Below are positions 5,901-32,000 of a stretch of DNA of 32,000 nucleotides, in pieces. A program made the position numbers and the translations under genes. The notes under the pieces were generated by a model. The model worked only from the letters and a program-made list of their open reading frames with translations. It ran no database searches and had not been told where the DNA came from. Position 1 is the first letter of the stretch; each line of letters starts with the position of its first letter. The DNA comes from Cupriavidus necator (GTDB lineage Bacteria > Pseudomonadota > Gammaproteobacteria > Burkholderiales > Burkholderiaceae): positions 1,770,001 to 1,802,000 of the forward strand of contig NZ_CP066019.1 in the NCBI RefSeq assembly GCF_016127575.1, written 5' to 3'.

Positions 5901-5936
5901 CCTGCAACTCCTGCAATTCCTGCACTACGCAGCGCC

Positions 5937-6308
5937 ATGACGCTCTCCACCTTCGCTTTCATCCTGACCGGCGTGCTGCTCAATGCGGCTGCGCAACTGT
6001 TGCTCAAGGCCGGCGTCAATGCCATCGGCGCGATCACGCTGGACCGTGGCACGCTGCTGGTGACGGCGCTGCGCGTGCTGACCCAATGGCCGGTGCTGGC
6101 CGGGCTGACGCTGTACGTGGTCAGCGTGGGGGTATGGATCGTGGGGCTGTCGCGCGTGGATGTGTCGATCGCCTACCCGATGCTGTCGCTCGGCTATGTG
6201 GTCAATGCACTGGCCGCCTGGTGGCTGTTCGGCGAGATGATCGGCCCCTTGCGCGTGGCCGGCATCCTGCTGATACTGGCGGGCGTCTTCCTGATCGCCC
6301 GCTCATGA
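5937..6308 (+). CDS. SMR/EamA-like small membrane protein, ArnE/ArnF-type undecaprenyl-phosphate-L-Ara4N flippase subunit
   Basis: 123 aa with four predicted TM helices and an SMR-like layout, located between arnT and arnB. Confidence 0.8.
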   Translation: MTLSTFAFILTGVLLNAAAQLLLKAGVNAIGAITLDRGTLLVTALRVLTQWPVLAGLTLYVVSVGVWIVGLSRVDVSIAYPMLSLGYVVNALAAWWLFGEMIGPLRVAGILLILAGVFLIARS

Positions 6309-6363
6309 CGCGCCTGCGCGCACGCCGCCAGTTCCGACACCGACCGTACTTCCTCGCCCTGCC

Positions 6364-7536: not shown

Positions 7537-8504
7537 GCCCGGTCGAAGTCTCGGTCGTCATTCCGGTCTACAACGAAGAAGACGGGCTGCAAGCCCTGTT
7601 CGACCGCCTCTATCCGGCGCTGGATGGCCTTGGCGAGTCGTACGAGATCATCTTCATCAACGACGGCAGCGTCGACCGCTCGGCGCAGCTGCTGGCGGCG
7701 CAGTTCCACAAGCGCCCGGATGTGACCCGGGTGGTGCTGTTCGCCGGCAATTTCGGCCAGCATATGGCGATCCTGGCGGGCTTCGAGCAGACCCGCGGCA
7801 AGATCGTGATCACGCTGGACGCCGACCTGCAGAACCCGCCGGAAGAAATCCCGCGCCTGGTCGAAGCCATGCGCGCCGGCCACGACTACGTCGGCACCAT
7901 CCGCCGCCAGCGCAACGACACCGCGTTCCGCCGCTATGCCTCGCGCGCGATGAACCGGCTGCGCGAGCGCATCACCAAGATCCGCATGACGGACCAGGGC
8001 TGCATGCTGCGCGCCTATGACCGCAATGTGGTCGACACGATCAATGCCTGCCGCGAGGTCAATACCTTCATCCCCGCGCTGGCCTACACCTTTGCTTCCA
8101 ATCCGGTCGAAATCGAAGTCGGTCACGAACAGCGCCACGCAGGCGAATCCAAGTATTCGCTGTACCAGCTGATCCGCCTGAACTTCGACTTGGTGACCGG
8201 CTTTTCGATCGTGCCGCTGCAGTGGTTCTCGGCGATCGGCACGATCCTGTCGCTGCTCTCGGGCGTGCTGTTCGTGGTGCTGCTGGTGCGGCGCTTCGTG
8301 CTCGGCTCGGAAGTCCAGGGTGTGTTCACGCTGTTCGCAATGAACTTCTTCCTGATCGGCATCCTGCTGTTCGGCGTGGGCCTGCTGGGCGAGTACGTCG
8401 GCCGCATCCACCAGGAAGTGCGCGACCGCCCGCGCTACCGCATCAAGGCCGTGCTGGAAGCGGACCGGCGTGTCACGCCGGCTGCCGCTGGCGCGGAGCA
8501 ATGA
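7533..8504 (+). CDS. arnC: undecaprenyl-phosphate 4-deoxy-4-formamido-L-arabinose transferase (GT2)
   Basis: GT2 motifs VSVVIPVYNEE, INDGSVD and LDADLQNPPEEI, with two C-terminal TM helices. The ATG at 7533 overlaps the arnB stop (ATGA). An alternative in-frame ATG at 7515 would add 6 aa. Confidence 0.9.
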   Translation: MSPVEVSVVIPVYNEEDGLQALFDRLYPALDGLGESYEIIFINDGSVDRSAQLLAAQFHKRPDVTRVVLFAGNFGQHMAILAGFEQTRGKIVITLDADLQNPPEEIPRLVEAMRAGHDYVGTIRRQRNDTAFRRYASRAMNRLRERITKIRMTDQGCMLRAYDRNVVDTINACREVNTFIPALAYTFASNPVEIEVGHEQRHAGESKYSLYQLIRLNFDLVTGFSIVPLQWFSAIGTILSLLSGVLFVVLLVRRFVLGSEVQGVFTLFAMNFFLIGILLFGVGLLGEYVGRIHQEVRDRPRYRIKAVLEADRRVTPAAAGAEQ

Positions 8505-9445
8505 TGCGCGCCGTCGTCTTCGGCTACCACAATGTCGGCGACCGCTGCCTGCGCGTGCTGCATGCGCGCGGCGTGGAGGTTGCGCTGGTGATCACGCACC
8601 GCGACCGCCCCGACGAGAACATCTGGTTCCGCCGCGTGGCCGACACCGCCGCCGAGCTGGGCATCCCCTTCGTCTATGGCGAGGACCCTGCCGATCCCGC
8701 GATCGCCCAGGCCGTGCGCGACGCGCACCCGGACGTCATCTTCTCGTTCTACTACCGCGCCATGATCCCGGCGGGCGTGCTGGCGCTGGCCCCCGGCGGC
8801 GCCTTCAACATGCACGGCTCGCTGCTGCCCAAGTACCGCGGCCGCGTGCCGGTGAACTGGGCGGTACTGCACGGCGAGACCGAGACCGGCGCCACGCTGC
8901 ACGCCATGGAAGCCAAGCCTGACGCGGGCTATATCGTCGACCAGACCGCGGTGCCGATCCTGCCGGACGACACTGCGGGCGAAGTCTTCGAGAAAGTCAC
9001 CGTCGCCGCCGAACAGACGTTGTGGCGCGTCCTGCCCGCGATGATCGCCGGGCACACGCCGCAACACCCCAACCGGCTGGCCGAGGGCAGCTACTTCTCC
9101 GGGCGCAAGCCGGAAGACGGCCGCATCGACTGGAGCCGCCCGGCCGCCGAGGTCTACAACCTCGTGCGCGCCGTCGCGCCGCCCTATCCCGGCGCCTTTA
9201 CCGACCTTGCCGGGCACCGCTTCATTGTGGCGCAGGCGCGCCGGCCGCTGCCGGAGCTTGCGCTGGCGCTGCCCGCCGGCACGGCGCCCGGCCTGCATGT
9301 GCATGACGGCCAGATCATCGGCCTGTGCGGCGACGGCGGCCTGGTCATGGTCACCCGATTGCTGGCACAGGATGGCTCGGCTCTCACGCCGCAAGCCTTC
9401 GCCAAACTTATCCATACCGAATCATCCAACGAGGAAAGCCGATGA
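8501..9445 (+). CDS. arnA: UDP-L-Ara4N formyltransferase (stand-alone ArnA N-terminal domain)
   Basis: 314 aa starting MMRAVVFGYHNVG. Formyltransferase motifs are HGSLLPKYRGRVPVNWAV (catalytic His) and ATLHAMEAKPDAGYIVDQ. The start overlaps the arnC stop (ATGA at 8501-8504). The track ORF from 8222 is an out-of-context extension inside arnC. Confidence 0.9.
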   Translation: MMRAVVFGYHNVGDRCLRVLHARGVEVALVITHRDRPDENIWFRRVADTAAELGIPFVYGEDPADPAIAQAVRDAHPDVIFSFYYRAMIPAGVLALAPGGAFNMHGSLLPKYRGRVPVNWAVLHGETETGATLHAMEAKPDAGYIVDQTAVPILPDDTAGEVFEKVTVAAEQTLWRVLPAMIAGHTPQHPNRLAEGSYFSGRKPEDGRIDWSRPAAEVYNLVRAVAPPYPGAFTDLAGHRFIVAQARRPLPELALALPAGTAPGLHVHDGQIIGLCGDGGLVMVTRLLAQDGSALTPQAFAKLIHTESSNEESR

Positions 9446-10494
9446 AAAAGGTCCTGATTCTTGGCGTCAACGGCTTCATCGGCCATCACCTGACGCGCCG
9501 CATCCTGGAAACCACGCCGTGGGAGGTCTACGGCATGGACATGTCGTCGGACCGTCTCGGCGACCTCGTCGACCACCCGCGCATGCACTTCTTCGAGGGT
9601 GACATCACCATCAACAAGGAGTGGATCGAGTACAACATCCGCAAGTGCGATGTGGTGCTGCCGCTGGTGGCCATCGCCACCCCGGCCACCTACGTGCGCC
9701 AGCCGCTGCGCGTGTTCGAGCTGGACTTCGAGGCCAACCTGCCGATCGTGCGCGCCGCGGTCAAGTACGGCAAGCACCTGGTATTCCCGTCGACCTCCGA
9801 GGTCTACGGCATGTGCAGCGATGAAGAGTTCGACCCCGAGGCCTCGCCGCTGGTCTACGGCCCGATCAACAAGCCGCGCTGGATCTATGCCTGCTCCAAG
9901 CAGCTGATGGACCGCGTGATCCACGCCTACGGCATGGAGCAAGGCCTGAACTACACCCTGTTCCGTCCGTTCAACTGGATTGGCGCGGGGCTGGATTCGA
10001 TCTTCGAATCGAAGGAAGGCTCGTCGCGCGTGGTGACGCAGTTCCTCGGCCATATCGTGCGCGGCGAGCCGATCAAGCTGGTCGACGGCGGCGCCCAGCA
10101 GCGCGCCTTTGCCGATATCGCCGACGGCATCGACGCGCTGATGCGCATCATCGAGAATCCAAACGGCGTGGCCAGCGGCAAGATCTACAACATCGGCAAC
10201 CCGGGCAATATCCACTCGGTGCGCGAACTGGCCGAGATGATGCTGAAGATGGCGGCGGACTATCCGGAATACGCGGAGGAAGCGCGCAAGACGCAGATCA
10301 TCGAGACCTCCTCGGGCGACTTCTACGGCAAGGGCTACCAGGACGTGCAGCATCGCGTGCCCAGGATCGACAACACCATCGAAGAGCTGGGCTGGAAGCC
10401 CGGGATCAGCATGGAAGCGGCGCTGCGCCGCATCTTCGAGGCGTACCGCGGCAAGGTGGTCGAGGCCCGCACGCTGGTCGATTCGGCCAACTGA
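9442..10494 (+). CDS. arnA: UDP-glucuronic acid oxidative decarboxylase, NAD-dependent SDR (stand-alone ArnA C-terminal domain)
   Basis: 350 aa starting MKKVLILGVNGFIGHHL (Rossmann GxxGxxG). The SDR YxxxK is in YACSKQLMDR. ATG at 9442 overlaps the formyltransferase stop (ATGA). Confidence 0.9.
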   Translation: MKKVLILGVNGFIGHHLTRRILETTPWEVYGMDMSSDRLGDLVDHPRMHFFEGDITINKEWIEYNIRKCDVVLPLVAIATPATYVRQPLRVFELDFEANLPIVRAAVKYGKHLVFPSTSEVYGMCSDEEFDPEASPLVYGPINKPRWIYACSKQLMDRVIHAYGMEQGLNYTLFRPFNWIGAGLDSIFESKEGSSRVVTQFLGHIVRGEPIKLVDGGAQQRAFADIADGIDALMRIIENPNGVASGKIYNIGNPGNIHSVRELAEMMLKMAADYPEYAEEARKTQIIETSSGDFYGKGYQDVQHRVPRIDNTIEELGWKPGISMEAALRRIFEAYRGKVVEARTLVDSAN

Positions 10495-10507
10495 GCGCGC
10501 AACGCAA

Positions 10508-11404
10508 ATGGCACGCATTGCCCTGAAGGTCGACGTCGACACGCTGCGCGGCACGCGCGAAGGCGTGCCGAAGCTGCTGTCGATGCTGGCGGCTGCGCAA
10601 GCGCAGGCAACCTTCCTGTTCAGCCTCGGCCCCGACCATACCGGCTGGGCGCTGCGGCGCGTATTCCGGCCCGGCTTCCTGAAGAAGGTGTCGCGCACCT
10701 CGGTGGTGTCCAACTATGGCCTGCGCACGCTGATGTATGGCGTGCTGCTGCCGGGGCCGGACATCGGCCGCAAGGGCGCCGCCGAGATGCGCGCGGCGCG
10801 CGCTGCCGGCCATGAGTGTGGCATCCACACCTGGGACCACGTCTACTGGCAGGACAACGTGCGCGAGCGCGATGCTGCCTGGACGCGCCGGCAGATGCAG
10901 CAGGCGTTCGCGCGCTACACCGAGATCTTCGGCGAAGCGCCGGCCACGCACGGCGCAGCCGGCTGGCAGATGAACGAGGATGCGTTCCGCCAGATCGATG
11001 ACTGGGGCATGGCGTACGCGTCGGATGGACGCGGCACCGCGCCTTATGTTCCGACGATCGACGGCGTGCCCTGCCGGCACGTGCAGATGCCGACCACGCT
11101 GCCCACGCTGGATGAACTGATCGGCACCGACGACCTGACCGAAGACAACGTCCACACCGCGCTGCTGAAGCTGACCGAAGGCACGCGCGACCATGTCTTC
11201 ACGCTGCATACCGAGCTGGAAGGCGGCAAGCTGGCGCCGGTGTTCGAGCGGCTGCTGGCCGGATGGCGTGCGCAGGGGCACGAGCTGGTGTCGATGGCGA
11301 CGTGGTATCGCGGGCTGAATCGGCAGGGATTGCCGGAGTTGCCGGTAACGTGGGGGGAGATCCCGGGGCGCAGCGGGGAGTTGATCGTGCAGCCGCAGGG
11401 CTGA
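10508..11404 (+). CDS. arnD: 4-deoxy-4-formamido-L-arabinose-phosphoundecaprenol deformylase (polysaccharide deacetylase family)
   Basis: 298 aa starting MARIALKVDVDTLRGTREGVP. NodB-type His motifs (HECGIHTWDH). It is the last gene of the arn set. Confidence 0.88.
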   Translation: MARIALKVDVDTLRGTREGVPKLLSMLAAAQAQATFLFSLGPDHTGWALRRVFRPGFLKKVSRTSVVSNYGLRTLMYGVLLPGPDIGRKGAAEMRAARAAGHECGIHTWDHVYWQDNVRERDAAWTRRQMQQAFARYTEIFGEAPATHGAAGWQMNEDAFRQIDDWGMAYASDGRGTAPYVPTIDGVPCRHVQMPTTLPTLDELIGTDDLTEDNVHTALLKLTEGTRDHVFTLHTELEGGKLAPVFERLLAGWRAQGHELVSMATWYRGLNRQGLPELPVTWGEIPGRSGELIVQPQG

Positions 11405-11433: not shown

Positions 11434-13809
11434 CTAGCCGCGCCGCTCCGCCCCCACGCGCAGCCCGTTGAACACCACCAGCAGGCTCGCGCCCATATCG
11501 GCGAACACCGCCATCCACATCGTCCCCATCCCCAGCACCGTCAGCACCAGGAACACGGCCTTGATGCCGAGCGCCAGCGCGATGTTCTGCGTGAGGATGC
11601 CTGAGGTGCGGCGCGACAGGCGCACAAAGGCCGGGATCTTGCGCAGGTCATCGTCCATCAGCGCCACGTCGGCGGTCTCGATTGCGGTGTCGGTGCCGGC
11701 TGCGCCCATGGCGAAGCCGATATCGGCACGCGCCAGCGCCGGCGCGTCGTTGATGCCGTCGCCCACCATGCCGATGCGGCCGCCGCGCGCGTGGGCGGCG
11801 CCGGCAAGCGCCGCGATGCCGTCGGCCTTGTCCTGCGGCAACTGGTTGCCGCGCGCCTCATCGATGCCGACCTGCGCCGCAATGGCTTGCGCCGTGTGTG
11901 GATTGTCGCCCGACAGCATCAGCGTCCTGACGCCCAGTTCATGCAGTTCGGCAATCGCCTGCCGGCTGGTGTCGCGCACGGTATCCGCCACCGCGAACAG
12001 CGCCAGCGCCGTGGCGGCGCCGTGGCCGTCGACGCGCGCCAGCAGCACCACGGTCTTGCCCTCGCGCTCAAGCGCTTCGAGCCGCGCCTCCAGCGCCGGC
12101 GAGCAGGCGCCCATCTCATGCACCAGGCGATGGTTGCCCAGGCAGTACGCCACGCCCTGCACCTTGCCGCGCGTGCCGCGCCCCGCCAGCGCCTCGAAGT
12201 CGTCCACCGGCAGCGTGCCGATCCCGTCGGCCGCGGCCGCCGTGGCCACCGCGCGCGAAACCGGGTGGTCCGAGCGCGCCGCCAGGCTGGCGGCAATGGC
12301 GCGCGCCTGCGGCGCGTCCTCGGCCAGCAGCGCATGGTTGGTCTGCGCGGGCTTGCCGTGCGTGATCGTGCCGGTCTTGTCCAGCGCCACCCAGGCCAGG
12401 TGCCGGCCCTGCTCCAGGTACACCCCGCCCTTGACCAGGATGCCGCGGCGCGCGGCCGCGGCCAGCCCGCTGACGATGGTCACCGGCGTGGAGATTACCA
12501 GCGCGCAGGGGCAGGCGATCACCAGCAGCACCAGCGCCTTGTAGATCCAGTCGACCCAGGCGCCGCCCATGACCAGCGGCGGCACCACCGCAACCGCCAG
12601 CGCAAGCGCGAACACCGTGGGCGTGTAGATGCGCGCGAACTGGTCGACAAAGCGCTGCGTGGGCGCACGGCTGCCCTGCGCGGCCTCGACCGCGTGGATG
12701 ATGCGGGCCAGCGTGGAATCGCTGGCGGGCGCCGTCACGGTGTACTCCAGCTCGCCGGACTGGTTGATCGAGCCGGCGAACAGCGCATCGCCCTCGGTCT
12801 TGTCGACCGGCACGCTTTCGCCGGTGATGGGCGCCTGGTCCAGCGCCGACTGGCCGCGCACGACCTTGCCGTCGAGCGCGACGCGCTCGCCTGGCCGCAG
12901 CCGCACCAGCGCGCCCACGGCGACGCCGGCGGCAGGCACGGTCTCCCAGCTGCCATCGGCACGCTGCACCGTGGCCTGTTCCGGCGCCATCGCCATCAAG
13001 CCGCGGATCGCATTGCGCGCCCGGTCCAGCGAGGCTGCCTCGATGCGCTCGGCCAGCGCGAACAGCACCATCACCATGGCCGCTTCCGGCCACTGGCGCA
13101 ACAGCAGTGCGCCGGTGACGGCAATGCTCATCAGCGCATTGATGTTCAGGTTGCCATTGCGCAGCGCGATCCAGCCCTTGCGGTAGGTGGTCAGCCCGCC
13201 CAGCGCCACCGCCGCCAGCGCCAGCACGGCGGGCAGCCACGGCAAGCCCAGGCCCAGCCACTCCGCAGCTTCGGCACCCAAGGCGGCCACGCCGGCCAGC
13301 GCCAGCGGCCACCAGGGCTTGCTTGCCGTGGTTTGCGGCAAGACTTGCTGCGCGGCCTCGGTGCTCAGCGGCACCGGCTGCATGCCCAGGCTCTCGATCG
13401 CCCTGGCCACCGGCTCCGCCGACGGCAAGGTGTGATGCACCGTCAGCACCCGCTGGATCAGGTTGAACTCCAGCGCCGCCACGCCGGCCATGCCGCCCAG
13501 CTTGTTGCGGATCAGCGTTTCCTCGGTCGGGCAGTCCATCGCGTCGATGCGCCACGCAGCGGTCTGCGCGCCGGCGGGGATGTCGACCGGTGCGGCGGGC
13601 GTCAGCGCAACCGTGGACGAGCAGCCGCCGCCGCAGCAGGCGGAAGCCGCCGGTGCCTGCCGGGCCTCGGCATGGCCATGCCCATGATGGTCATGATCGT
13701 GGTCGTGGTGATGGTCGTGATCATGCCCGCCATGCCGGTGGGCGGCGCCATCATGCGCGTGGGCAGCGTGATCTTGAGGGAGTGCGTCCTCAGGTGACGT
13801 GCGAGCCAT
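11434..13809 (-). CDS. cadA: heavy-metal translocating P1B-type ATPase (Cd2+/Zn2+/Pb2+ exporter, CadA/ZntA type)
   Basis: 791 aa. Features are a His-rich N-terminus, a CCGGGC cluster, an HMA-like domain (DAMDCPTEE), the transmembrane CPC motif (IACPCALVISTP), the DKTGT phosphorylation site, the GDGINDAP hinge and an HP motif (SDHP). The gene symbol is a family-level guess. Confidence 0.95.
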   Translation of the reverse strand: MARTSPEDALPQDHAAHAHDGAAHRHGGHDHDHHHDHDHDHHGHGHAEARQAPAASACCGGGCSSTVALTPAAPVDIPAGAQTAAWRIDAMDCPTEETLIRNKLGGMAGVAALEFNLIQRVLTVHHTLPSAEPVARAIESLGMQPVPLSTEAAQQVLPQTTASKPWWPLALAGVAALGAEAAEWLGLGLPWLPAVLALAAVALGGLTTYRKGWIALRNGNLNINALMSIAVTGALLLRQWPEAAMVMVLFALAERIEAASLDRARNAIRGLMAMAPEQATVQRADGSWETVPAAGVAVGALVRLRPGERVALDGKVVRGQSALDQAPITGESVPVDKTEGDALFAGSINQSGELEYTVTAPASDSTLARIIHAVEAAQGSRAPTQRFVDQFARIYTPTVFALALAVAVVPPLVMGGAWVDWIYKALVLLVIACPCALVISTPVTIVSGLAAAARRGILVKGGVYLEQGRHLAWVALDKTGTITHGKPAQTNHALLAEDAPQARAIAASLAARSDHPVSRAVATAAAADGIGTLPVDDFEALAGRGTRGKVQGVAYCLGNHRLVHEMGACSPALEARLEALEREGKTVVLLARVDGHGAATALALFAVADTVRDTSRQAIAELHELGVRTLMLSGDNPHTAQAIAAQVGIDEARGNQLPQDKADGIAALAGAAHARGGRIGMVGDGINDAPALARADIGFAMGAAGTDTAIETADVALMDDDLRKIPAFVRLSRRTSGILTQNIALALGIKAVFLVLTVLGMGTMWMAVFADMGASLLVVFNGLRVGAERRG

Positions 13810-21602: not shown

Positions 21603-22958
21603 TCACCCCTCCACCTGCGCCGGCATCTCTGCCAGCCGCTGCACCGATGCCCGCAGACCCTCCAGTATCGTGTCCGCCACCTTCTGCGGAAAACCCGCGG
21701 GCAGTGCTGCGCCGACCTCGGCGATCACCGCCGGGGTCCGCGCGATGATGCGCCCGATCAGCGCCTCGGCATCGGCACCCAGGAAACAGCGCGGTGCCAT
21801 CGCATTGAAATGGCGGCGCTGGATATCGCGCAGGCCGTAGTGCCGGCTGCGGCCGGCGACCGCCATGGCCAGCTTGGCCTTGTGCCAGGAGAACTGGTTG
21901 GCGCCCTGGCCCACCACCGGCCAGATCGACATCACGTCGTACAGCGGCGTCATGCGGTAGCGCCCGCCGGCCAGCAGGCGGATGCTGAAGTTCTTGGCGT
22001 GCCCGTCCGGTGCCGCCAGCAGCCAGAACAGCAACTGCGCGGCCAGCAGCGTCTGCAGATCATCGGCCTGGGCCACTGAGTTGCGCAGCACCGTGGCGAT
22101 CTCGATCATGCCGGGCCCGCCATCGGCCTCGTATTTCTGCAGCGGGCTGTGGCCGAACACCTGGCAGAAATCTTCCTGCAGCAGCCGCAGCAGCCAATTG
22201 CCTGACGGATGAGGCTGGCGGTCGAAACGCGTGACGCTCAGCACCTTGCGGCGGCCGAACGTCAGCATCTCGCAATCGGCCACCGGCAAGCCATAGGCGG
22301 CAAGGATCTTCAGGCACAGCCATTCGTTTTCCACCGACGTGCTCAGGTCGGCCCTGCGGTTTCCCACCAGGCCCAGTGGCAGCTTGAAAATATGTGTGGT
22401 CGGGGTGGCGCCATGCGGCCGCAGCCATTGGCCGTCATGGCGCAGCAGCGCCGTCTTCTCCTGCGCGCCGGCGATGGAGATGCGGAAGTCGTCGTCGTGC
22501 TCATGCCGCCCAAGCGCGGGGGTGGCGACGATATCCTCCAGCCAGCGCTCGATCTGCTCGTCCGATAGCGGTTCGCCTTCGATCCGGTCGATGCCCGCAG
22601 GCGCTTGGTCTTCGCCCAGGATCTGCACCGCGCCCACGCAATCGCGGCCGATGGCGGCGAGCAGCTCGAAGGCTTCCACCGAGCCGGTCTGGAAGCGCAG
22701 CGCCAACCGGCGCCGGATGGCCTCGCTGTCCGGCAACAGGTTGTCGAAGTAGTTGCGCACGGCATCCCCACGCACCACGCGCCGGTTGCCCAGGCCATAC
22801 CCGAGCGACAGAGACAGGGGCCGCCCGGCTTCAGAGCGGATCCAGTCCTCGTCGTATTCCAGTTCCATCCCGGTACCGGACGGCTGGCGCCAGGTGCCCA
22901 CGCGCTGCCCGTTGGCCCAGACCGACAACGCCGGCGTACGTGACCTGCGTGCCACCAT
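21603..22958 (-). CDS. hipA: type II toxin HipA, serine/threonine kinase
   Basis: 451 aa from the ATG at 22956-22958. It has a HipA N-terminal coupling domain (LSVWANGQRVGTW...), the ISIAGAQEKTAL P-loop-like motif and the catalytic motif APDGHAKNFSI. The track ORF extends to 23276 only by reading through hipB in another frame. Confidence 0.92.
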   Translation of the reverse strand: MVARRSRTPALSVWANGQRVGTWRQPSGTGMELEYDEDWIRSEAGRPLSLSLGYGLGNRRVVRGDAVRNYFDNLLPDSEAIRRRLALRFQTGSVEAFELLAAIGRDCVGAVQILGEDQAPAGIDRIEGEPLSDEQIERWLEDIVATPALGRHEHDDDFRISIAGAQEKTALLRHDGQWLRPHGATPTTHIFKLPLGLVGNRRADLSTSVENEWLCLKILAAYGLPVADCEMLTFGRRKVLSVTRFDRQPHPSGNWLLRLLQEDFCQVFGHSPLQKYEADGGPGMIEIATVLRNSVAQADDLQTLLAAQLLFWLLAAPDGHAKNFSIRLLAGGRYRMTPLYDVMSIWPVVGQGANQFSWHKAKLAMAVAGRSRHYGLRDIQRRHFNAMAPRCFLGADAEALIGRIIARTPAVIAEVGAALPAGFPQKVADTILEGLRASVQRLAEMPAQVEG

Positions 22959-22960
22959 GA

Positions 22961-23212
22961 TTACCACGCCACGTCGGACACCTCGGCGGCCCCCGTGGCC
23001 CGGTCCTGAACCACCAATTCCAGCCCGAGCGCGCCGACCAGCGCCAGCAACTGGTCGACGCTGATGGTGTCGGGGTTCAGCTCCATGTGCGACATCCGGC
23101 TCTGGCTGATATTCAGCCGCGCGGCGGCCTCGGTCTGGTTCAGGCCGGCCGCCTTGCGCGCTGCCTGCAGGATCTGGCCAAGCTGCCAGGGAGTGGAGAC
23201 GATTTGCTTCAT
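22961..23212 (-). CDS. hipB: antitoxin HipB, XRE-family HTH protein
   Basis: 83 aa. The Cro/C1 HTH is LGQILQAARKAAGLNQTEAAARLNISQSRMSHME. Its stop lies 2 nt before the hipA start. Confidence 0.9.
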   Translation of the reverse strand: MKQIVSTPWQLGQILQAARKAAGLNQTEAAARLNISQSRMSHMELNPDTISVDQLLALVGALGLELVVQDRATGAAEVSDVAW

Positions 23213-24782: not shown

Positions 24783-25637
24783 TCAGGCTTTCGGCCGGCA
24801 CGACGCGTCGCCGGCCGCCCGCCGCAGCCGCTGCCACACCAGGACAGGCAGCCGCAGCATGAAGCCGGCCAGCAGCCGCAGGTGCATGCCGGTCAGCAGC
24901 AGGTTGTCGTGCAGATAGCGGAAGTGCGACACCCCACCCTCGCGCTGGCCGAAGTAGCGCACCGGGGCGTCGGCATTGATGGGGCGCACGCCGCGCCAGC
25001 ACAGCCGCACCGCCACTTCCGGGTCGAAGTCGAAGCGACGCATCCAGCGGCTCTCGCGCATGACGGCGCGCAGCGGCGCGATCGGGTAGACGCGAAAGCC
25101 GTACAGGGAATCCCCGATGCCCGCCCATAGCGTCTCGACATCCGCCCAGAAGTTGGACATGCGCCGCCAGTAGACCCGCTCGCGCGGCGCGCTGGCGTCG
25201 AAGACGGGCCGGCCCAGCACCATGGCGCCCGGGTTGCGCTGTGATATCGCCATGAATTGCGCAATCAGGTGCGCGGGGTGCTGCCCGTCCGAATCCATCA
25301 CCAGCACATGCGTGAAACCGGCCGCGGCGGCGGAATCGATGCCATGCAGCACCGCGGTGCCCTTGCCCTGGTTGTGCGGCAGCACCAGGACGCGCAGCCC
25401 GGGATCGATGGCTGCCTGCGCCAGCAGCCACTGGTCGCTGCCATCGGTGCTGCCGTCCACGACCACCCAGACCGGTGTCCAGGCGGCGCGCGCCGCGCGC
25501 AGCACCTCATGCAGGCGCACGCCGGGGTTATAGCTGGGGATCAGCACCAGGTGCGTGGCGGACGGCTCGGCGTCACCCATCGGGCAGGCGCTGCCGCCGG
25601 CTACCAGTGCGGGCCCGGGCATGGCTTGCTGCGGCAT
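24783..25637 (-). CDS. family 2 glycosyltransferase (aryl-polyene-cluster-type GT)
   Basis: 284 aa from the ATG at 25635-25637. GT2 motifs are LVLIPSYNPG, VVVDGSTDGS, NQGKG and VMDSDGQH. It lies downstream of the ACP gene on the same strand. Confidence 0.85.
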   Translation of the reverse strand: MPQQAMPGPALVAGGSACPMGDAEPSATHLVLIPSYNPGVRLHEVLRAARAAWTPVWVVVDGSTDGSDQWLLAQAAIDPGLRVLVLPHNQGKGTAVLHGIDSAAAAGFTHVLVMDSDGQHPAHLIAQFMAISQRNPGAMVLGRPVFDASAPRERVYWRRMSNFWADVETLWAGIGDSLYGFRVYPIAPLRAVMRESRWMRRFDFDPEVAVRLCWRGVRPINADAPVRYFGQREGGVSHFRYLHDNLLLTGMHLRLLAGFMLRLPVLVWQRLRRAAGDASCRPKA

Positions 25638-25692
25638 GTCGTGCTCCGGTCCTGGCTTTGGAAAGGGGGGAAGGTTGGGTGCGGCTGCCGAA

Positions 25693-25953
25693 CTAGCGCG
25701 TACGGTGTTCCGCCAGATAGTTGGCCAGGCTGCCCAGCGAGGCGAAGATGGTCTTGTTGTCGGGGTTGTCCGAACGCAGTTCGACCCCGTACTTGCGCGA
25801 CACCAGCAGTGCGATCTCGAGGATATCGATGGAATCCAGCCCGAAGCCTTCGCCATAGAGCGGCGTGGCGGCGCTGATGTCCTCCAGCCGTAGCTCGGCA
25901 ATTTCGAGTTCGTCGATGATCAGGCGGGCAAGTTCGGTTTCGAGTTCGGTCAT
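25693..25953 (-). CDS. acyl carrier protein
   Basis: 86 aa: MTELETELARLIIDELEIAELRLEDISAATPLYGEGFGLDSIDILEIALLV..., with the phosphopantetheine Ser in GLDSIDILE. It is the C-terminal part of the spurious 402-aa track ORF 25693..26901. Confidence 0.88.
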   Translation of the reverse strand: MTELETELARLIIDELEIAELRLEDISAATPLYGEGFGLDSIDILEIALLVSRKYGVELRSDNPDNKTIFASLGSLANYLAEHRTR

Positions 25954-26220
25954 GTCGCTAGGTGGCTGGAATGCCGCTGCGGCATGGGTCCGGGCAAGGT
26001 TGTCCAGGCCGCATGGCAGGGCAACCGATGCTATCAAAAGGGGCAAATCCCAGCCAGTTGAGAGAAGTTTAGTAACAACAAAGGCAGGCCTTTTGGGAAT
26101 CATCACCACGTCGGGCCGGTCTTTTGGGGTATAAAGCGTTCGCTTCGCGCACCACGCGGCGCCATTTCCGGCAACGCCGTGCACCAAGCGACTTACGCTA
26201 CACACAATATACCCTCGCAG

Positions 26221-26955
26221 ATGCCATCGAGCCAGCAATTCGACCGCCCCTCCACGCCCGCCGCGCCAGCCACGCCTGTACGGCAGGATGCCGTGCCGGC
26301 AGGCCGGCGCCATGGCTGGATTGCAGCGGTGGCCGCCTTTGTCGCCTACGAATCCGCCCTGCACCATGCGGCACACCAGCCAGGTGCCGAAGTCGCCGCG
26401 CTGTGGCTCGGGGCGGCGCCGTTCCTGCTGATCGGCTTCCTTGCCTGCCTCCGCACTTGGGGGCGCCTGCCCGCAATGGCCGCCTTGCTGGCCGCCTGCG
26501 CCGCCCTGTGGATCTGGCGCATGCCGTTGGCCGCGCATTTCGGCTGGACCTATTTCCTGCAGCACGCCGGCATCAATGCCGCGCTGGGCGTGATGTTCGC
26601 GCTGAGCCTGCGTCCCGGCCGCACGCCACTGTGCACGCAGATCGCGACGGCAATCCATGGCCAGCTGCCCCCCGCGCACCTGCGCTACACGCTGCGCGTG
26701 ACCCAGGCCTGGACGCTGTTCTTTGCCGCGATGGTAGGTGTATCGACGCTGCTGTTCGTGCTCGCGCCGGTGGCGACCTGGTCCAGCTTCGCCAACCTGG
26801 CCACGCCGCTGCTGATCGCGCTGATGTTCGTGGGCGAAGCCGTGTGCCGCCGCGTTGCCTTCCCGGGCATGGCCCACGGCGGCCTGCTGGACGCGGTGCA
26901 TGGCTATCGCGCAGTCATGGCTGCCCGTGCGGACCGGCCCGGTTTGCCGCGCTGA
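26221..26955 (+). CDS. integral membrane protein of the lipid cluster, function unknown
   Basis: 244 aa from the ATG at 26221 (a GTG at 26179 is possible). It has about 5 hydrophobic helices (WIAAVAAFVAY, ALWLGAAPFLLIGFLACL, MAALLAACAALWIW, TLFFAAMVGVSTLLFVLAPV, LATPLLIALMFVG). It is the first gene of the plus-strand operon. Confidence 0.7.
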   Translation: MPSSQQFDRPSTPAAPATPVRQDAVPAGRRHGWIAAVAAFVAYESALHHAAHQPGAEVAALWLGAAPFLLIGFLACLRTWGRLPAMAALLAACAALWIWRMPLAAHFGWTYFLQHAGINAALGVMFALSLRPGRTPLCTQIATAIHGQLPPAHLRYTLRVTQAWTLFFAAMVGVSTLLFVLAPVATWSSFANLATPLLIALMFVGEAVCRRVAFPGMAHGGLLDAVHGYRAVMAARADRPGLPR

Positions 26956-27004
26956 CGCGCCGCAAACCGGCCCCTACACTGGCAACAGGCACAGGCTCAG
27001 CCCC

Positions 27005-28720
27005 ATGACCATGCTCCCGATCGTCGCGCATGCCTCGCCCGAAGACATCATCGCCTGGGCGCACGGACGGCCTGTCAGCGTGCGCCAGTTCCTGGCAGAT
27101 GCGTCCAGCCTGGCCGATGCGCTGCCCGCAGGCGGGCACGTATTCAACGCCTGCACCGACCGCTACCGCTTCACCGTCGGCCTGTGCGCCGCGCTGCTGG
27201 CGGGCAAGGCCACCCTGCTGCCGCCATCGCATACGCCGGAGATGGTGCGCCAGCTGGCCGACTTTGCCCCGGACGCCTTCTGCCTGCACGACCAGCCTGA
27301 CGCGGCATTCGCCATGCCGGCGTTCCACTATCACGACGGCCTGCGCGGCGCGGCCACGGACGGGCCGGTCGAGATCCCGCGGATTGCCGCGACCCAGGTC
27401 ATGGCGTACGTGTTCACGTCAGGCTCGACCGGCACGCCGGTGCCGCACCGCAAGACCTGGGGCGCGATGGCCCGGTGCGCGCAGGCCGCGGCACAGCGGC
27501 TCGGCCTGCTGGACGGGCGTGCCTGGACCGTGGTGGGCACGGTGCCGCCGCAGCATATGTTCGGGCTGGAGGCCACGGTCATGCTGGTGCTGCAGGGCCG
27601 CGCGGCCCTGGTGTCGGCCCCGGCCTTCTATCCTGCCGACGTGCACGATGCCCTCGCCTCGGTGCCGGCCTCGCGTGCGCTGGTCAGCTCGCCCGTGCAC
27701 CTGCGCACGCTGGTGCAGTCGGGCATGGCAATGCCGCCGGCAGACCTGGTGCTGTGCGCGACCGCCCCGCTTGGCCGCCAGCTGGCGGGCGAGACCGAGA
27801 CCCTGTTCGGCGCTCCGCTGTGCGAGATCTACGGTAGCACCGAGACCGGCCAGATCGCCACGCGCCGCACCGCGCAGGCTGATGCCTGGACACTGGTGCC
27901 GGGCGTGCGGCTGCAGGCACGCCAGGGCGCCGGCGGCGCCGAGACCTGGGCCGAAGGCGGCCATATCGAGCAGCCGGTGCCGCTGGGCGACGCCATCGCG
28001 CCGCTGGATGCCGGCCACTTCCTGCTCCATGGCCGCAAGGCCGACATGCTGAATATCGCCGGCAAGCGCACCTCGCTGGCTTACCTGAACCACCAGCTCA
28101 CGGCCATCGACGGCGTGCGCGACGGCGCGTTCTTCATGCCCGATGATGCGCACGAAGGCGACACGCATGGCCACGTGGTGCGGCTGGTGGCCGTGGCAGT
28201 GGCGCCAGGCGTCGCCCCGGCGCAGCTGCAGCAGGCGCTGCGCGCGCGCATCGACCCGGCCTTCCTGCCACGCCCGCTGCTCTTTGCCGACAGCCTGCCG
28301 CGCAATGCGGCCGGCAAGCTGCCGCGCGAGGCCCTGGCGGCGCTGGTCGCAAGGCTTGCCGGGGCGCACCACGGCGATAGCGCGGCAAGGCCCGGCTTTG
28401 TCATCGACGCCGATCACCCGGCCATCGCCGGCCACTTTCCCGGCCATCCGATCGTGCCGGGGGTGGTACTGCTGGACCACGCGGTGCTGGCACTCGGCAT
28501 TGCAATGGGCCGCCGCCTTGCCGTCACCGAGGCCGGCACCATCAAGTTCCTGAGCCCGGTGACCCCGGGCGAGCGCGTTGAGATCCTCCACCAGGCCGAC
28601 GCAGCGGCCGATGGCGGCGTGAGTATCCGCTTCACGCTGCGCAGCGCCGGACGCGACGTCGCCAGCGGCACGCTGCAGGTGCGCGGTGCCGCGACGCACG
28701 CGGGGGCATCGGCATGCTGA
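27005..28720 (+). CDS. fusion protein: ANL-superfamily adenylating enzyme (acyl/aryl-AMP ligase) plus a C-terminal FabA/FabZ-like hotdog dehydratase
   Basis: 571 aa from the ATG at 27005. Adenylation cores are FTSGSTGTPVPHRKTW, EIYGSTETG, HGRKADMLNIAGKRTS and NAAGKLPR. From about residue 440 there is a hotdog motif, DADHPAIAGHFPGHPIVPGVVLLD. It overlaps the next gene by 7 nt. Confidence 0.85.
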   Translation: MTMLPIVAHASPEDIIAWAHGRPVSVRQFLADASSLADALPAGGHVFNACTDRYRFTVGLCAALLAGKATLLPPSHTPEMVRQLADFAPDAFCLHDQPDAAFAMPAFHYHDGLRGAATDGPVEIPRIAATQVMAYVFTSGSTGTPVPHRKTWGAMARCAQAAAQRLGLLDGRAWTVVGTVPPQHMFGLEATVMLVLQGRAALVSAPAFYPADVHDALASVPASRALVSSPVHLRTLVQSGMAMPPADLVLCATAPLGRQLAGETETLFGAPLCEIYGSTETGQIATRRTAQADAWTLVPGVRLQARQGAGGAETWAEGGHIEQPVPLGDAIAPLDAGHFLLHGRKADMLNIAGKRTSLAYLNHQLTAIDGVRDGAFFMPDDAHEGDTHGHVVRLVAVAVAPGVAPAQLQQALRARIDPAFLPRPLLFADSLPRNAAGKLPREALAALVARLAGAHHGDSAARPGFVIDADHPAIAGHFPGHPIVPGVVLLDHAVLALGIAMGRRLAVTEAGTIKFLSPVTPGERVEILHQADAAADGGVSIRFTLRSAGRDVASGTLQVRGAATHAGASAC

Positions 28721-29688
28721 GCTGGCTGTGGAGGCGGCAGCCGCCGCTGGAATCCGAATGGTCGCGCCGCCAGGAGCGCGGCAGCATCACGCTGCTGCGC
28801 GTCATGACGTGGATCTCGCTGGCACTCGGCCGCCCCGTCGGGCGCGTGGTGCTGCGGGGGATTGCGGCGTACTTCATGCTGTTCGCGCCGGCGGCACGCC
28901 ATGCCTCGCGCGCCTACATGGGCCGCGCCCTCGGGCGCGATGCCAACTGGATCGATGGCTACCGGCATGTGTTCACCTTCGCCTCGACCATCCATGACCG
29001 CATCTACCTGCTCAACGGCCGCTTCGACCTGTTCGATATCCGCCTGCACGGAGAGGAACAGCTGGAAGCCGCGATGGCGCGCGGCCGCGGCGCAATCCTG
29101 CTGGGTGCGCACCTGGGCAGCTTCGAGGTGGTGCGCGCGCTCGGGCGGCGGCACCCGGACATGGAAGTCGCGATCACCATGTACGAGGAAAACGCGCACA
29201 AGCTCAATGACGTGCTGACGTCGATCAACCCGGCGATGCGCCAGGACGTGATCGCGCTGGGCCGCTTCGACACCATGCTGCGGGTGCGCGACTACCTTGA
29301 CCGCGGCTACATGATCGGCATGCTGGCCGACCGCACGCTGTCGCAACGCGCCACCGACCCGGTGCAGCAGTGCAGCTTCCTCGGCACGCCGACCGGCCTT
29401 CCGACCGGCCCGCTACGCATGGCGGCGATGCTGCGCCGGCCGGTGTTCTTCATCACCGGCCTGTACCGCGGCGGCAACCGCTACGATGTGCACTTCGTGC
29501 CGCTGGCCGACTTCACCGAAACCGCACGCGGCCAGCGCGAGGCAGCCGTGCAAACCGCGCTGGCCGAATACGTGCGCCTGCTGGAACAATTCTGCCGCAG
29601 CGCCCCGTACAACTGGTTCAACTTCTACGATTTCTGGCACGCCGGCCCGCCGCTGTCTGAACAGCCGCCGCCGGGCAACGAGCCATGA
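28714..29688 (+). CDS. lysophospholipid/lipid A-type acyltransferase (LpxL/HtrB-like LPLAT)
   Basis: 324 aa with an N-terminal membrane anchor and an HX4(D/E) catalytic motif in GAHLGSFE. The length and layout match late acyltransferases. Confidence 0.8.
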   Translation: MLSWLWRRQPPLESEWSRRQERGSITLLRVMTWISLALGRPVGRVVLRGIAAYFMLFAPAARHASRAYMGRALGRDANWIDGYRHVFTFASTIHDRIYLLNGRFDLFDIRLHGEEQLEAAMARGRGAILLGAHLGSFEVVRALGRRHPDMEVAITMYEENAHKLNDVLTSINPAMRQDVIALGRFDTMLRVRDYLDRGYMIGMLADRTLSQRATDPVQQCSFLGTPTGLPTGPLRMAAMLRRPVFFITGLYRGGNRYDVHFVPLADFTETARGQREAAVQTALAEYVRLLEQFCRSAPYNWFNFYDFWHAGPPLSEQPPPGNEP

Positions 29689-29712
29689 CCCGCGAGCCCT
29701 GAGCAGCCCCTG

Positions 29713-30312
29713 ATGCCCCTTTCCAGACGCCCTTTCCGCTTCCTGCTGTCGATGCTGCTGGCCGGCGCCATGCTTGCGCTGGCCACGCCGTCCGGCGCCG
29801 CCACATTTGGCGTCGACCAGCTGATGTCCACCCTGGCGCAGCGCAAGTCTGGGCGCGTGCTGTTCACCGAGACCAAGTACCTGGCGATAGTCGACAAGCC
29901 GGTGCAGTCGTCCGGCGAGCTGCTGTTCACGGCGCCCGACCACCTGGAGAAGCGCACACTGTCGCCCAAGGCCGAGAACATGGTGCTCGACGGCGACATG
30001 CTGACGGTCGAGCGCGACGGCAAGCGCTACACCATGCCGCTGCAGAACTACCCCGAGCTGGCTGCCTTTATCGAAAGCATCCGCGGCACGCTGGCAGGCA
30101 ACCGCCAGACGCTTGAGCGCTACTACAAGCTCGGCCTGGAAGGCCGTGCCAGCCGCTGGACGCTGACACTGACTCCGGCGGACTCGCGCATGGCCGCGGT
30201 GGTCAGCCAGGTGCGCATCGACGGCAGCCAGGATGCGCTTGACCGCGTCGAGATCCGGCAGGCCGACGGCGACCGCTCGGTGATGAAGATCCGACCTGCC
30301 GGCCGCCCATGA
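29713..30312 (+). CDS. LolA-like outer-membrane lipoprotein carrier family protein
   Basis: 199 aa. Signal peptide ending ATPSGA-AT. The LolA-like pattern is FTETKYLAIVDKPVQSSGELLFTAPDHLEKRTLSPKAE..., and the genomic context matches. Confidence 0.8.
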   Translation: MPLSRRPFRFLLSMLLAGAMLALATPSGAATFGVDQLMSTLAQRKSGRVLFTETKYLAIVDKPVQSSGELLFTAPDHLEKRTLSPKAENMVLDGDMLTVERDGKRYTMPLQNYPELAAFIESIRGTLAGNRQTLERYYKLGLEGRASRWTLTLTPADSRMAAVVSQVRIDGSQDALDRVEIRQADGDRSVMKIRPAGRP

Positions 30313-32000
30313 GCGCAGCGCCGCCCGCAACGATGCGCCCAGCGATGCGCCGGCTCGCGCTGGCACTGTGGATCTTCGCCATGCTCGCCTGCGCGGCTGT
30401 GATCAGCCGCACCACCTTCACGGCCGACCTCTCGGCCTTCCTGCCGCGCCTGCCCAGCGCCGAGCAGCAATTGCTGGTGAACCAGCTGCGCGACGGGCTG
30501 GTATCGCGCCTGGTCCTGGTCGGGATCGAAGGCGGCGATGCCGATGGCCGCGCCGCGGTGTCGCGTGCCATGGCGGCACAGCTGCGCGGCGACCCCCGCT
30601 TCACGGCGATCCAGAACGGCGAGCCGGTCAACCAGGATGCAGACCGCCAATACGTGTTTGCGCACCGCTACCTGCTCAGCCCCGCGGTCACGCCCGAGCG
30701 CTTCAGTGAACGCGGCCTGGCGCAGGCGCTGAATGAATCGTTCGAGCTGCTGGCCTCGTCCGCCGGGCTCTTCACCAAGTCGCTGCTGCCGCGCGATCCC
30801 ACCGGCGAAGTGGCCGCGATGCTGGCACAGCTGGATGCCGGGCAGCGCGTGCCCATGCACGCCGGCGCCTGGGCGTCGCGCGACGGCAAGCGCGCGGTGC
30901 TGCTGGCGCAGACCGCCGCCGCGGGGTCTGACACGGATGCGCAGGCACAAGCCATCGGGGCCGTGCGCGAGGCGTTTGCCAAGGCTGCGATCGCTGGCAA
31001 GTACCAGCTGGCGATGACCGGGCCGGGCGTGTTCTCCGTCAATGCACGCGACACCATCCGCCATGATGTGGAGCGCCTGTCGACCATCGGCGTGGCCATC
31101 ATCGTCACGCTGCTGCTGCTGGTCTACCGCTCGGTGCCGCTGCTGGTGCTGGGGCTGGTGCCGGTACTGAGCGGCGCGCTGGCGGGCATTGCCGCGGTCA
31201 GCCTGGGCTTCGGCGGCTCGGTGCACGGACTGACGCTGGGCTTCGGCACCACGCTGATCGGCGAGGCGGTCGACTATTCGATCTACCTGTTCGTGCAGTC
31301 CGCGCAGTACACGCGCGACGGCCGGCGCGACGAGCGCGCCTGGCTGGGCGGCTTCTGGCCGACGGTGCGCCTGGGCGTGCTGACCTCGGTCTGCGGCTTT
31401 GCCTCGCTGCTGCTGTCGGGCTTTCCGGGGCTGGCGCAGCTGGGGCTGTATTCGATTGCCGGGCTGGCGACCGCGGCGCTGGTGACGCGCTTCGTGCTGC
31501 CGCAGTTGGTGCCGGCCACGCTGCACCTGCGCGACGTGGCGCCGCTGGGCCGCCGGCTGCAGTGGCTGGCGGCGCGCGCGCACCGGCTGCGCTGGCTGGT
31601 GCTCGTGCTGGTGGTGGCAGCCGCCACGGTGCTGGCCATGCACCGCGGCACGCTGTGGGGCCGCGAGCTGCAGGCGCTGAGCCCGGTGTCGGCCAGCGAC
31701 CAGGCCCTCGATACCAGGTTGCGCGAGGATCTTGGCGCGCCCGACGTGCGCTACCTGGTGGTGCTGTCCGGGCCGGACCAGGAATCCGTGCTGCAGGGCG
31801 CGGAGCGCGTGGCCCGTGAACTGGACCCGCTGGTGGCACAGAATTTCATCGGCGGCTACGAGAGCCCGGCGCGCTACCTGCCCAGCGCGGCGACCCAGCG
31901 CGAGCGCCAGGCCAGCCTGCCGCCGCCCGACGAGCTGGCGCAGCGCCTGGGCGCCGCCATCGCCACGCAGCCGGTGCGCGCGTCACTGTTCGCGCCTTTC
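30309..32000 (+). CDS. MMPL/RND-superfamily membrane transporter (partial, continues past the right edge)
   Basis: This frame stays open from the ATG at 30309 to the window end (564 codons), so it is not in the ORF track. Its ATG overlaps the LolA-like stop (ATGA). It has an N-terminal TM helix, a ~230-aa periplasmic loop, then an MMPL-type TM bundle (STIGVAIIVTLLLLVYRS, GLVPVLSGALAGIAAVSLGF, GFGTTLIGEAVDYSIYLF, GVLTSVCGFASLLLSGFPGLAQLGLYSIAGL). Confidence 0.85.
   Translation, partial: MSAAPPATMRPAMRRLALALWIFAMLACAAVISRTTFTADLSAFLPRLPSAEQQLLVNQLRDGLVSRLVLVGIEGGDADGRAAVSRAMAAQLRGDPRFTAIQNGEPVNQDADRQYVFAHRYLLSPAVTPERFSERGLAQALNESFELLASSAGLFTKSLLPRDPTGEVAAMLAQLDAGQRVPMHAGAWASRDGKRAVLLAQTAAAGSDTDAQAQAIGAVREAFAKAAIAGKYQLAMTGPGVFSVNARDTIRHDVERLSTIGVAIIVTLLLLVYRSVPLLVLGLVPVLSGALAGIAAVSLGFGGSVHGLTLGFGTTLIGEAVDYSIYLFVQSAQYTRDGRRDERAWLGGFWPTVRLGVLTSVCGFASLLLSGFPGLAQLGLYSIAGLATAALVTRFVLPQLVPATLHLRDVAPLGRRLQWLAARAHRLRWLVLVLVVAAATVLAMHRGTLWGRELQALSPVSASDQALDTRLREDLGAPDVRYLVVLSGPDQESVLQGAERVARELDPLVAQNFIGGYESPARYLPSAATQRERQASLPPPDELAQRLGAAIATQPVRASLFAPF

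Follow-up and report, generated by a model that had tools for sequence, protein, structure and literature searches.

A 32,000-nucleotide (nt) stretch of the Cupriavidus necator genome (contig NZ_CP066019.1, positions 1,770,001 to 1,802,000, referred to here as the window) carries at its right end, from position 24783 onward, a set of genes that we interpret, with a probability of roughly 0.75, as the first two-thirds of an 11-gene aryl-polyene (APE) lipid cluster of the xanthomonadin/arcuflavin type on chromosome 2 of strain H16. The GenBank record AM260480.1 (assembly GCA_000009285.2), which we take to be chromosome 2 of C. necator (Ralstonia eutropha) H16, has 0 mismatches to the window over the 12,288 nt of overlap with the locus retrieved from it (L001), and the genes past position 32000 were read from this record (L001 coordinate + 19,712 = window coordinate). 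The original prediction for this DNA, made from the window alone, was that the window edge truncates a cluster of the APE/xanthomonadin type in a Cupriavidus-like genome, and both parts agree with our results: every in-window protein has a member of the Ape cluster as its best match when compared by BLASTP with the characterized cluster of Escherichia coli CFT073 (L087, positions 23728 to 38749; gene names from PMC8253772), and the closest homologues of the cluster are all from Cupriavidus. Because strong domain matches sit within a conserved syntenic block that recurs in more than 580 genomes, the sequence evidence indicates that the locus is not a chance assemblage. The kind of cluster is well known, with sister clusters catalogued in 2014, and the H16 locus would be a new, uncharacterized member of it; our literature search returned nothing specific to this locus and no pigment report for H16.

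The genes of this cluster could be followed across the window edge, with Pfam models and NCBIfam models with curated bit cutoffs serving as domain evidence. On the minus strand lie genes for a family 2 glycosyltransferase (GT2; positions 24783 to 25637, 284 residues, PF00535, E = 1.4e-16; the mechanical reading frame extends to 25901, and the called start is at 25637) and an acyl carrier protein (ACP; 25693 to 25953, 86 residues, PF00550, 136 bits to NF006617 against a cutoff of 70). These are separated by 267 bp between two start codons (25954 to 26220), presumably bearing the promoters, from a plus-strand operon; a simple scan of this intergenic region found no sigma-70 consensus and no terminator. 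The plus strand encodes a polytopic, ApeG-like membrane protein (26221 to 26955, 244 residues, without a Pfam or NCBIfam match), a fusion of an AMP-binding domain to a FabA-like hotdog domain (ApeH-ApeI; 27005 to 28720, 571 residues), an LpxL-type acyltransferase of the Lip_A_acyltrans family (28714 to 29688, PF03279, E = 6e-14), a LolA-like, ApeL-type periplasmic lipid carrier (29713 to 30312, PF19574 LolA_3, E = 1e-22), and an ApeM-type exporter of the MMPL/RND type that begins at 30309, runs past 32000, and ends at window-equivalent position 32732 (807 residues, PF03176, E = 4e-16; its full length was also read from a second locus, L002). All seven genes and their divergent arrangement are thus as first described, as are two tight couplings, a 7-nt overlap of the fusion and acyltransferase genes (ATGCTGA at 28714 to 28720) and an ATGA overlap of the carrier and exporter genes (30309 to 30312). 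The GenBank annotation of H16 gives a 136-residue ACP (L001 5981 to 6391) and starts the exporter 24 nt later (L001 10621), and other assemblies with the same sequence give an 86-residue ACP (L002 5981 to 6241) and an exporter start overlapping at ATGA. The 86-residue ACP and the earlier exporter start are the better fit to homologues.

Beyond the window, the plus strand continues with a polysaccharide deacetylase of carbohydrate esterase family 4 (CE4; L001 13017 to 13865), the best NCBIfam match of which is NodB, under the cutoff, and then with an ApeO-type ketosynthase (KS; L001 13932 to 15134, NF006618, 550 bits), an ApeC-type chain length factor (CLF) of the Ketoacyl-synt_2 family (L001 15143 to 15955, PF13723, E = 1e-23), and an ApeP-type hotdog dehydratase identified by a family-profile match (L001 15948 to 16436, 162 residues). 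The last three all lie within 4.2 kb of the window end. It had been expected that KS, ketoreductase (KR), and second dehydratase genes would follow the edge; the KS and the dehydratase do so, together with the CLF, and the KR does not, since the cluster ends at the ApeP-like gene, which faces convergent genes for a fumarylacetoacetase and a homogentisate 1,2-dioxygenase. These two neighbors (L001 16443 to 19162, window-equivalent 36155 to 38874, minus strand) belong to tyrosine/homogentisate catabolism. Neither outcome that was to count against the original prediction was observed, be it a lack of any KS or KR gene within about 10 kb of the edge or a grouping of the adenylase and LPLAT with housekeeping lipid A or ornithine-lipid enzymes.

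The comparison with E. coli identifies most of the individual genes. The GT2 aligns with residues 9 to 242 of ApeJ (39% identity, E = 2e-52), and the acyltransferase aligns with residues 247 to 550 of the same protein (28.5% identity, E = 8e-38) and has no BLASTP match to ApeD, a PlsC-type protein (TIGR00530). We therefore read ApeJ as divided here between two oppositely oriented genes, with the GT2 as its N-terminal half and the acyltransferase as its C-terminal half, and the earlier assignment of the LPLAT-family gene to ApeD has to be withdrawn. A label such as "lysophospholipid/lipid A acyltransferase" would, at this locus, denote the detached acyltransferase half of ApeJ and neither ApeD nor a lipid A enzyme. 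The acyltransferase retains an intact H-X4-E motif (GAHLGSFE), and its best lipid A acyltransferase model scores 37.6 bits against a cutoff of 273, the cutoffs for lipid A and PIM acyltransferases spanning 209 to 273. The best NCBIfam match of the GT2, which has a DSD motif, is PpgS, a polyprenyl-phosphate N-acetylgalactosamine (GalNAc) synthase, as is that of E. coli ApeJ, and the protein resembles enzymes that place a sugar onto a lipid phosphate (PpgS/ArnC-like).

The ACP is of the ApeE type (39% identity, E = 1e-18) and matches ApeF weakly, so that of the two names originally offered for it, ApeE or ApeF, the first stands and the second falls. E. coli ApeE reaches 89.5 bits with the ACP model NF006617, and ApeF instead matches NF003757; the phosphopantetheine serine of the C. 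necator protein lies within GLDSID. Only one ACP had been visible in the window, and it proves to be the sole ACP of the whole cluster. The membrane protein is similar to ApeG (31% identity over 94 residues, E = 2e-9), and its position between the ACP and the ligase is kept in most related loci. In the fusion protein (AMP-binding domain, E = 1.9e-14; FabA-like domain, E = 6e-6), the ligase part matches ApeH (26% identity, E = 1e-21) and the hotdog part matches ApeI (29% identity over 52 residues, E = 2e-3). The best model of the fusion, TIGR02372 (105 bits), is also that of E. coli ApeH (75 bits), and the ApeI-like domain PF22818 falls below threshold in our local Pfam search (E = 3e-3) and is present among precomputed matches. 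With the motifs TSGSTG, YGSTETG, and GK lysine in the ligase and HFPGHPIVPGV in the hotdog domain, the fusion is predicted to be an ApeH-type aryl-acid adenylating, ACP-loading enzyme joined to an ApeI-type hotdog dehydratase. The LolA-like protein matches ApeL (22% identity, E = 4e-8) and, at 56 bits against a cutoff of 125, NF053544 LolA2_flexi (E = 2e-15); its translated N terminus is hydrophobic and resembles a signal peptide. The exporter matches ApeM over its whole length (26% identity, E = 2e-23).

The biosynthetic core past the window is identified in the same manner. The KS is closest to ApeO (42% identity, E = 2e-75; ApeR, 35%), exceeds the NF006618 cutoff of 407 bits and scores nearly as E. 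coli ApeO does (556 bits; ApeR matches NF006587), and has an aligned Cys-His-His triad that is intact. Its best PDB matches (7f28_B, 7e-76; 6qsp_A, 3e-72) are the ApeO proteins of Acinetobacter baumannii and Xenorhabdus, and the CLF, which is of the KS N-terminal domain type and matches ApeC (27.5% identity, E = 5e-10), returns the partner chains (7f28_A, 3.5e-7; 6qsp_B, 2.8e-5); both structures are ApeO:ApeC complexes (PMC8358021). For the ApeP-like protein, single-sequence searches gave a PDB phmmer match to an unrelated hydratase (E = 0.77), a Pfam match at E = 0.14, and no BLASTP match to ApeP, and a profile of 18 sequences has as its top match 6qsr_B, from the Xenorhabdus dehydratase complex (4.5e-10), and aligns with E. 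coli ApeP by hhalign (E = 1.3e-4). The CE4 protein keeps its motifs intact (TFDD, HSxxH, RxPxG, and LLLHD) and begins with two hydrophobic segments; the basic residues on both sides of these suggest that its catalytic domain may face the cytoplasm.

Searching with an alignment of the fusion protein yielded matches in at least 587 genomic stretches, of which 80 loci were examined, and when these were surveyed by tblastn with the full C. necator and E. coli protein sets a recurrent order emerged: ACP, ApeG-like protein, ligase, dehydratase, ApeJ-C acyltransferase, LolA-like carrier, MMPL exporter, CE4 deacetylase, KS, CLF, and ApeP-like dehydratase. A KR usually follows the ApeP-like gene, and close to these genes there is a GT2, with an ApeD-like gene in many loci and a XanB2-type chorismatase likewise in many. 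Members of the family occur in Burkholderiaceae, Rhodoferax, Polaromonas, Methylotenera, Noviherbaspirillum, Aromatoleum/Azoarcus, Thiomonas, Steroidobacteraceae, and Acidithiobacillus. The gene order had been called rearranged; it does differ from that of E. coli, but it is the standard order of the xanthomonadin/arcuflavin type. The fusion of ligase and dehydratase is a lineage trait: with the exception of one fragmented draft, every Burkholderiaceae locus checked has it, as do a few metagenomic genomes, and 48 other loci encode the two parts in separate, neighboring genes. A small extra frame directly after the ApeP-like gene (85 to 109 residues, no Pfam match) is found in Burkholderia, Paraburkholderia, and Ralstonia (L088, 19366 to 19695; L089, 19380 to 19637) and is absent from C. 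necator H16.

Among described systems, the closest are the arcA-X cluster of Azoarcus sp. BH72 and the clusters of Variovorax paradoxus S110/B4, which share with H16 the gene order, the single ACP, and a GT2 encoded as a separate gene. The Azoarcus genes arcV to arcN encode an ACP, a hypothetical protein, an AMP-ligase, a dehydratase, an acyltransferase, LolA, an exporter, a hypothetical protein, and a polysaccharide deacetylase (Schoner et al. 2014, PMC3949708), and arcK to arcH encode a KS, an N-terminal-KS-domain protein, a dehydratase, and a KR; the yellow pigment is lost when arcK or arcT carries an insertion, and ArcT accepts 3-hydroxybenzoate and 4-substituted benzoates for adenylation (PMC3949708). 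The same order, with ligase and dehydratase apparently fused, is given for V. paradoxus S110 (Vapar_2669-2679), and in Table S7 of that study the clusters of Burkholderia cenocepacia and B. ambifaria already carry the xanthomonadin-type label, for which a XanB2/YjgF-type chorismatase in the cluster was the criterion (PMC3949708). B. cenocepacia and Ralstonia solanacearum carry the same operon as H16 at about 60% protein identity, and the pig/xan cluster of Xanthomonas is a further member of the xanthomonadin/arcuflavin type. Since published and surveyed relatives alike carry them, the CE4 deacetylase and the single ACP are family traits and no oddity of the H16 locus; a single ACP without an ApeF-type second one is typical of xanthomonadin clusters (PMC8253772). 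Relative to the xanthomonadin/arcuflavin type, however, H16 lacks the XanB2/FkbO-type chorismatase, the cluster KR, the PlsC-type arcD/ApeD-like gene, a methyltransferase, and a halogenase.

The APE clusters of E. coli CFT073, Xenorhabdus doucetiae, and A. baumannii are more distant relatives. H16 has homologues of ApeC, E, G, H, I, J, L, M, O, and P, shares with E. coli the suborders G-H-I, L-M, and O..P, and matches the same NCBIfam models for the KS, ACP, ligase, and GT2, but it lacks ApeA, B, D, F, K, N (LolB-like, DUF3261), Q, and R and differs in its split ApeJ, fused ApeH-ApeI, extra CE4 deacetylase, and identities of 22 to 42%. The logic is probably common to both, with an ACP-bound aryl polyene passed to a hexosamine-phosphate lipid for export. 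Set against the APE core of KS (apeO/R), ACP (apeE/F), CLF (apeC), dehydratases (apeI/P), KR (apeQ), and transporter (apeM) (Grammbitter et al. 2020), H16 has the ApeO-type KS, ApeC-type CLF, ApeE-type ACP, ApeI and ApeP, and ApeM. Flexirubin clusters of Bacteroidota are similar in their LolA-like carrier, exporter, acyltransferase, GT2, and type II polyene synthase, but the H16 locus is without a tyrosine/histidine ammonia-lyase and dialkylresorcinol genes, and its LolA match is under the cutoff. Regarding occurrence, one genome survey reports APE clusters for all Ralstonia strains tested, and in another "arylpolyene" is among the cluster classes named in the legend of a figure on C. necator H16 and Xanthobacter sp. 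SoF1.

Compared with these relatives, the H16 copy is, judging by its gene content, a reduced version that has lost the cluster KR, the XanB2 chorismatase, and the PlsC-type ApeD. The minus strand of B. cenocepacia carries a GT2, a XanB2-type chorismatase (FkbO_Hyg5-like), a KR, and an ACP; that of R. solanacearum carries a GT2, a KR, and an ACP; and that of C. basilensis carries a GT2, an ApeD-like gene, XanB2, a KR, and an ACP. The H16 counterpart consists of the GT2 and ACP alone, 55 bp apart. The chorismatase is also absent from Ralstonia loci and several Paraburkholderia loci, and the ApeD-like gene that stands beside the GT2 in many relatives is absent from the H16 locus; tblastn with KR, XanB2, ApeD, ApeR, ApeK, ApeB, and ApeN queries returned no further matches in the 32-kb window. 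In a neighbor-joining tree of Burkholderiaceae clusters, built from their KS, MMPL, acyltransferase, and fusion proteins after concatenation, the clusters without a KR fall on four distinct branches, namely a necator/neocaledonicus/consociatus clade adjoining KR-containing Cupriavidus, a Ralstonia pickettii-like group sister to R. solanacearum, Paraburkholderia sp. A1BS-2L (sister to P. silvatlantica), and P. kururiensis. The cluster KR, encoded between GT2 and ACP in L010, L011, L028, L088, and L089, is 76 to 89% identical across genera, against about 55 to 65% for other cluster proteins; the most conserved of these proteins across genera is nonetheless the one whose gene has been lost repeatedly.

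All 11 reading frames are intact in H16, and among four KR-less Cupriavidus species the ratio of nonsynonymous to synonymous substitution rates (dN/dS) is 0.08 to 0.37 for all 11 genes, at dS of 0.27 to 1.0. Because these values come from within the KR-less Cupriavidus clade, the cluster has stayed under purifying selection after the loss of its KR. Two features are modest curiosities in their own right, namely the repeated loss of the KR while constraint persists and the presence throughout the family of an unexplained deacetylase.

Several observations weigh against assigning a complete APE pathway to this locus. Neither the H16 locus nor the 32-kb window contains a KR or any short-chain dehydrogenase/reductase (SDR) gene, and neither a chorismatase nor a tyrosine ammonia-lyase that could supply a starter is present at the locus. 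The best 120 matches to the cluster KR (all ≥75% identical) include many from Cupriavidus and none from C. necator, C. taiwanensis, or C. oxalaticus, and a tblastn search of PLSDB plasmids with the cluster KR gave no Cupriavidus match above 60%. To our knowledge, C. necator H16 has not been described as yellow-pigmented. The matches of the ApeI and ApeP candidates are weak under single-sequence methods, and what the deacetylase does and how the chain is attached are proposed by analogy only. Finally, A. baumannii FabG failed to replace ApeQ in vitro (PMC8041823). With the KR lost and the remaining genes constrained, either a reductase would act in trans or the product would differ. We tentatively propose, as a minority view, that the KR-less, chorismatase-less, and ApeD-less 11-gene form is a distinct working variant that operates through an unlinked or housekeeping reductase or makes a different lipid. 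Should it be true, recruitment of a housekeeping reductase would contradict the in vitro FabG finding for APE synthesis, and a different lipid could mean that the CE4 enzyme frees the hexosamine amine, so that the anchor would be N-linked or carry that amine free, in contrast to the GalNAc ester in the only APE lipid solved.

The strongest competing explanation, which we nevertheless regard as rather improbable, is that an active cluster makes something other than an aryl polyene, such as an acyl or aryl-acyl chain, short or reduced in a different way, on a de-N-acetylated hexosamine phospholipid; by analogy with NodB-NodA or LpxC-LpxD logic, the chain might be N-linked after deacetylation. 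The absence of KR, XanB2, and ApeD from the locus would fit such a product, as would the failure to find a KR orthologue for the necator clade in the searches above, the in vitro behavior of FabG in another species, the purifying selection on all remaining genes, and a CE4 protein that is conserved family-wide with intact motifs and NodB as its best NCBIfam match. On the other hand, H16 keeps the KS, the CLF, and both members of the dehydratase pair under constraint, and dehydratases would be useless without a β-hydroxy intermediate, so a trans-acting reductase is required; apart from the KR itself, sister clusters that have one are alike gene for gene, which argues for the same chemistry. That the H16 cluster is an inactive remnant, its pathway broken by loss of the KR, chorismatase, and ApeD, is more doubtful again: three genes of relatives are missing, only 55 bp remain between GT2 and ACP where relatives have the KR, and no report of pigment is known for H16, but the 11 frames are intact with catalytic motifs preserved, the dN/dS values among the four KR-less Cupriavidus species indicate constraint, and the KR-less state persists in the Ralstonia pickettii-like group and two Paraburkholderia branches, making a decaying remnant unlikely. 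A set of housekeeping envelope-lipid enzymes (late lipid A acylation, ornithine lipid, or Arn-type modification) is highly improbable, for although the acyltransferase belongs to the Lip_A_acyltrans family and the GT2 and CE4 pair recalls ArnC and ArnD, the acyltransferase scores about 38 bits against cutoffs of 209 to 273 with ApeJ as its best alignment, a dedicated ACP, KS, CLF, and dehydratases are co-located, and the window has a complete arn operon of its own apart from the cluster.

Under the favored interpretation of an APE lipid cluster, we propose a mechanism that draws on the gene identities, synteny, intact motifs, and constraint observed here, with the individual reaction steps being conjectural. 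The ligase domain would load a hydroxybenzoate onto the ApeE-type ACP. Because the locus has no XanB2 or ammonia-lyase, the starter is probably 4-hydroxybenzoate from ubiquinone metabolism, a source that has been proposed for the APE of E. coli (PMC8253772); any part of the homogentisate-pathway neighbors in supplying an aromatic starter is speculative. The ApeO-ApeC pair would then elongate the starter with malonyl units, the β-keto groups would be reduced by an unlinked SDR that is not encoded in the cluster, and the ApeI domain and ApeP would dehydrate the intermediates to give a conjugated polyene. Since its best NCBIfam match is a polyprenyl-phosphate GalNAc synthase, the GT2 is expected to add an N-acetylhexosamine to a lipid phosphate. 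The membrane-anchored CE4 protein would probably de-N-acetylate the lipid-linked sugar, before or after acylation, and the LpxL-type acyltransferase may transfer the polyene from the ACP to the sugar. The ApeG-like protein, the MMPL pump, and the LolA-like carrier would bring the finished lipid to the outer membrane.

An analogous sequence of steps is known from ArnC/ArnD, NodC/NodB, and LpxC/LpxD, in which a GT2 places an amino sugar on a lipid phosphate, a CE4-family deacylase acts on the lipid-linked sugar, and an acyl group is then transferred. We use these systems as a functional analogy to the GT2 and CE4 pair without claiming membership in any of them, and the ArnC and ArnD of the window are only remotely similar. 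The solved Xenorhabdus product is a GalNAc-phosphate-glycerol lipid with the polyene in ester linkage to O-6 of the GalNAc; ApeJ is proposed to attach first the sugar and afterwards the polyene, and ApeF and ApeD are proposed to serve a second, conjugated-fatty-acid branch (bioRxiv 10.1101/2020.12.19.423268). H16 has kept ApeE and both halves of ApeJ and has lost ApeF and ApeD, which by comparison with Xenorhabdus suggests that the second, conjugated-fatty-acid branch may be absent and that H16 would make a simpler lipid carrying the sugar-linked polyene alone.

The full APE lipid product has been solved for one subtype only. APE clusters are among the commonest biosynthetic gene clusters of Gram-negative bacteria, and their products protect from oxidative stress. 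C. necator H16 is a tractable industrial chassis, and its pared-down cluster is a possible minimal system for determining which genes are needed. It could show whether a trans-acting reductase serves the pathway and could reveal the effect of the deacetylase on the sugar anchor in the xanthomonadin-type family.

The remainder of the window contains a complete-looking operon for lipid A 4-aminoarabinose modification (arn, 3861 to 11404, plus strand) with a GT2 and CE4 pair of its own. It encodes ArnT (Arnt_C, 3861 to 5900), ArnB (a DegT aminotransferase, 6364 to 7536), ArnC (GT2, 7515 to 8504), an ArnA-like epimerase/dehydratase (9325 to 10494), and an ArnD-like CE4 deformylase (10508 to 11404), all on the plus strand. 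We considered whether the GT2 and CE4 of the APE cluster are recent paralogues of this ArnC and ArnD and rejected this, as the similarity is remote; a lipid A or ornithine-lipid role for the cluster was likewise rejected given the sub-cutoff scores, the Ape best matches, and the presence of this separate, remotely related operon. About 1.6 kb from the end of the GT2 gene, a toxin-antitoxin pair on the minus strand (21603 to 23212) consists of HipA (Couple_hipA/HipA_C, 451 residues) and a HipB-like helix-turn-helix protein (83 residues). ARAGORN calls a 90-nt tRNA-Gly(GCC) at 13627 to 13716 on the plus strand, inside the frame of a P-type ATPase (11434 to 13809, minus strand; E1-E2_ATPase, E = 4e-55), and this call, made in GC-rich coding sequence, is probably a false positive.

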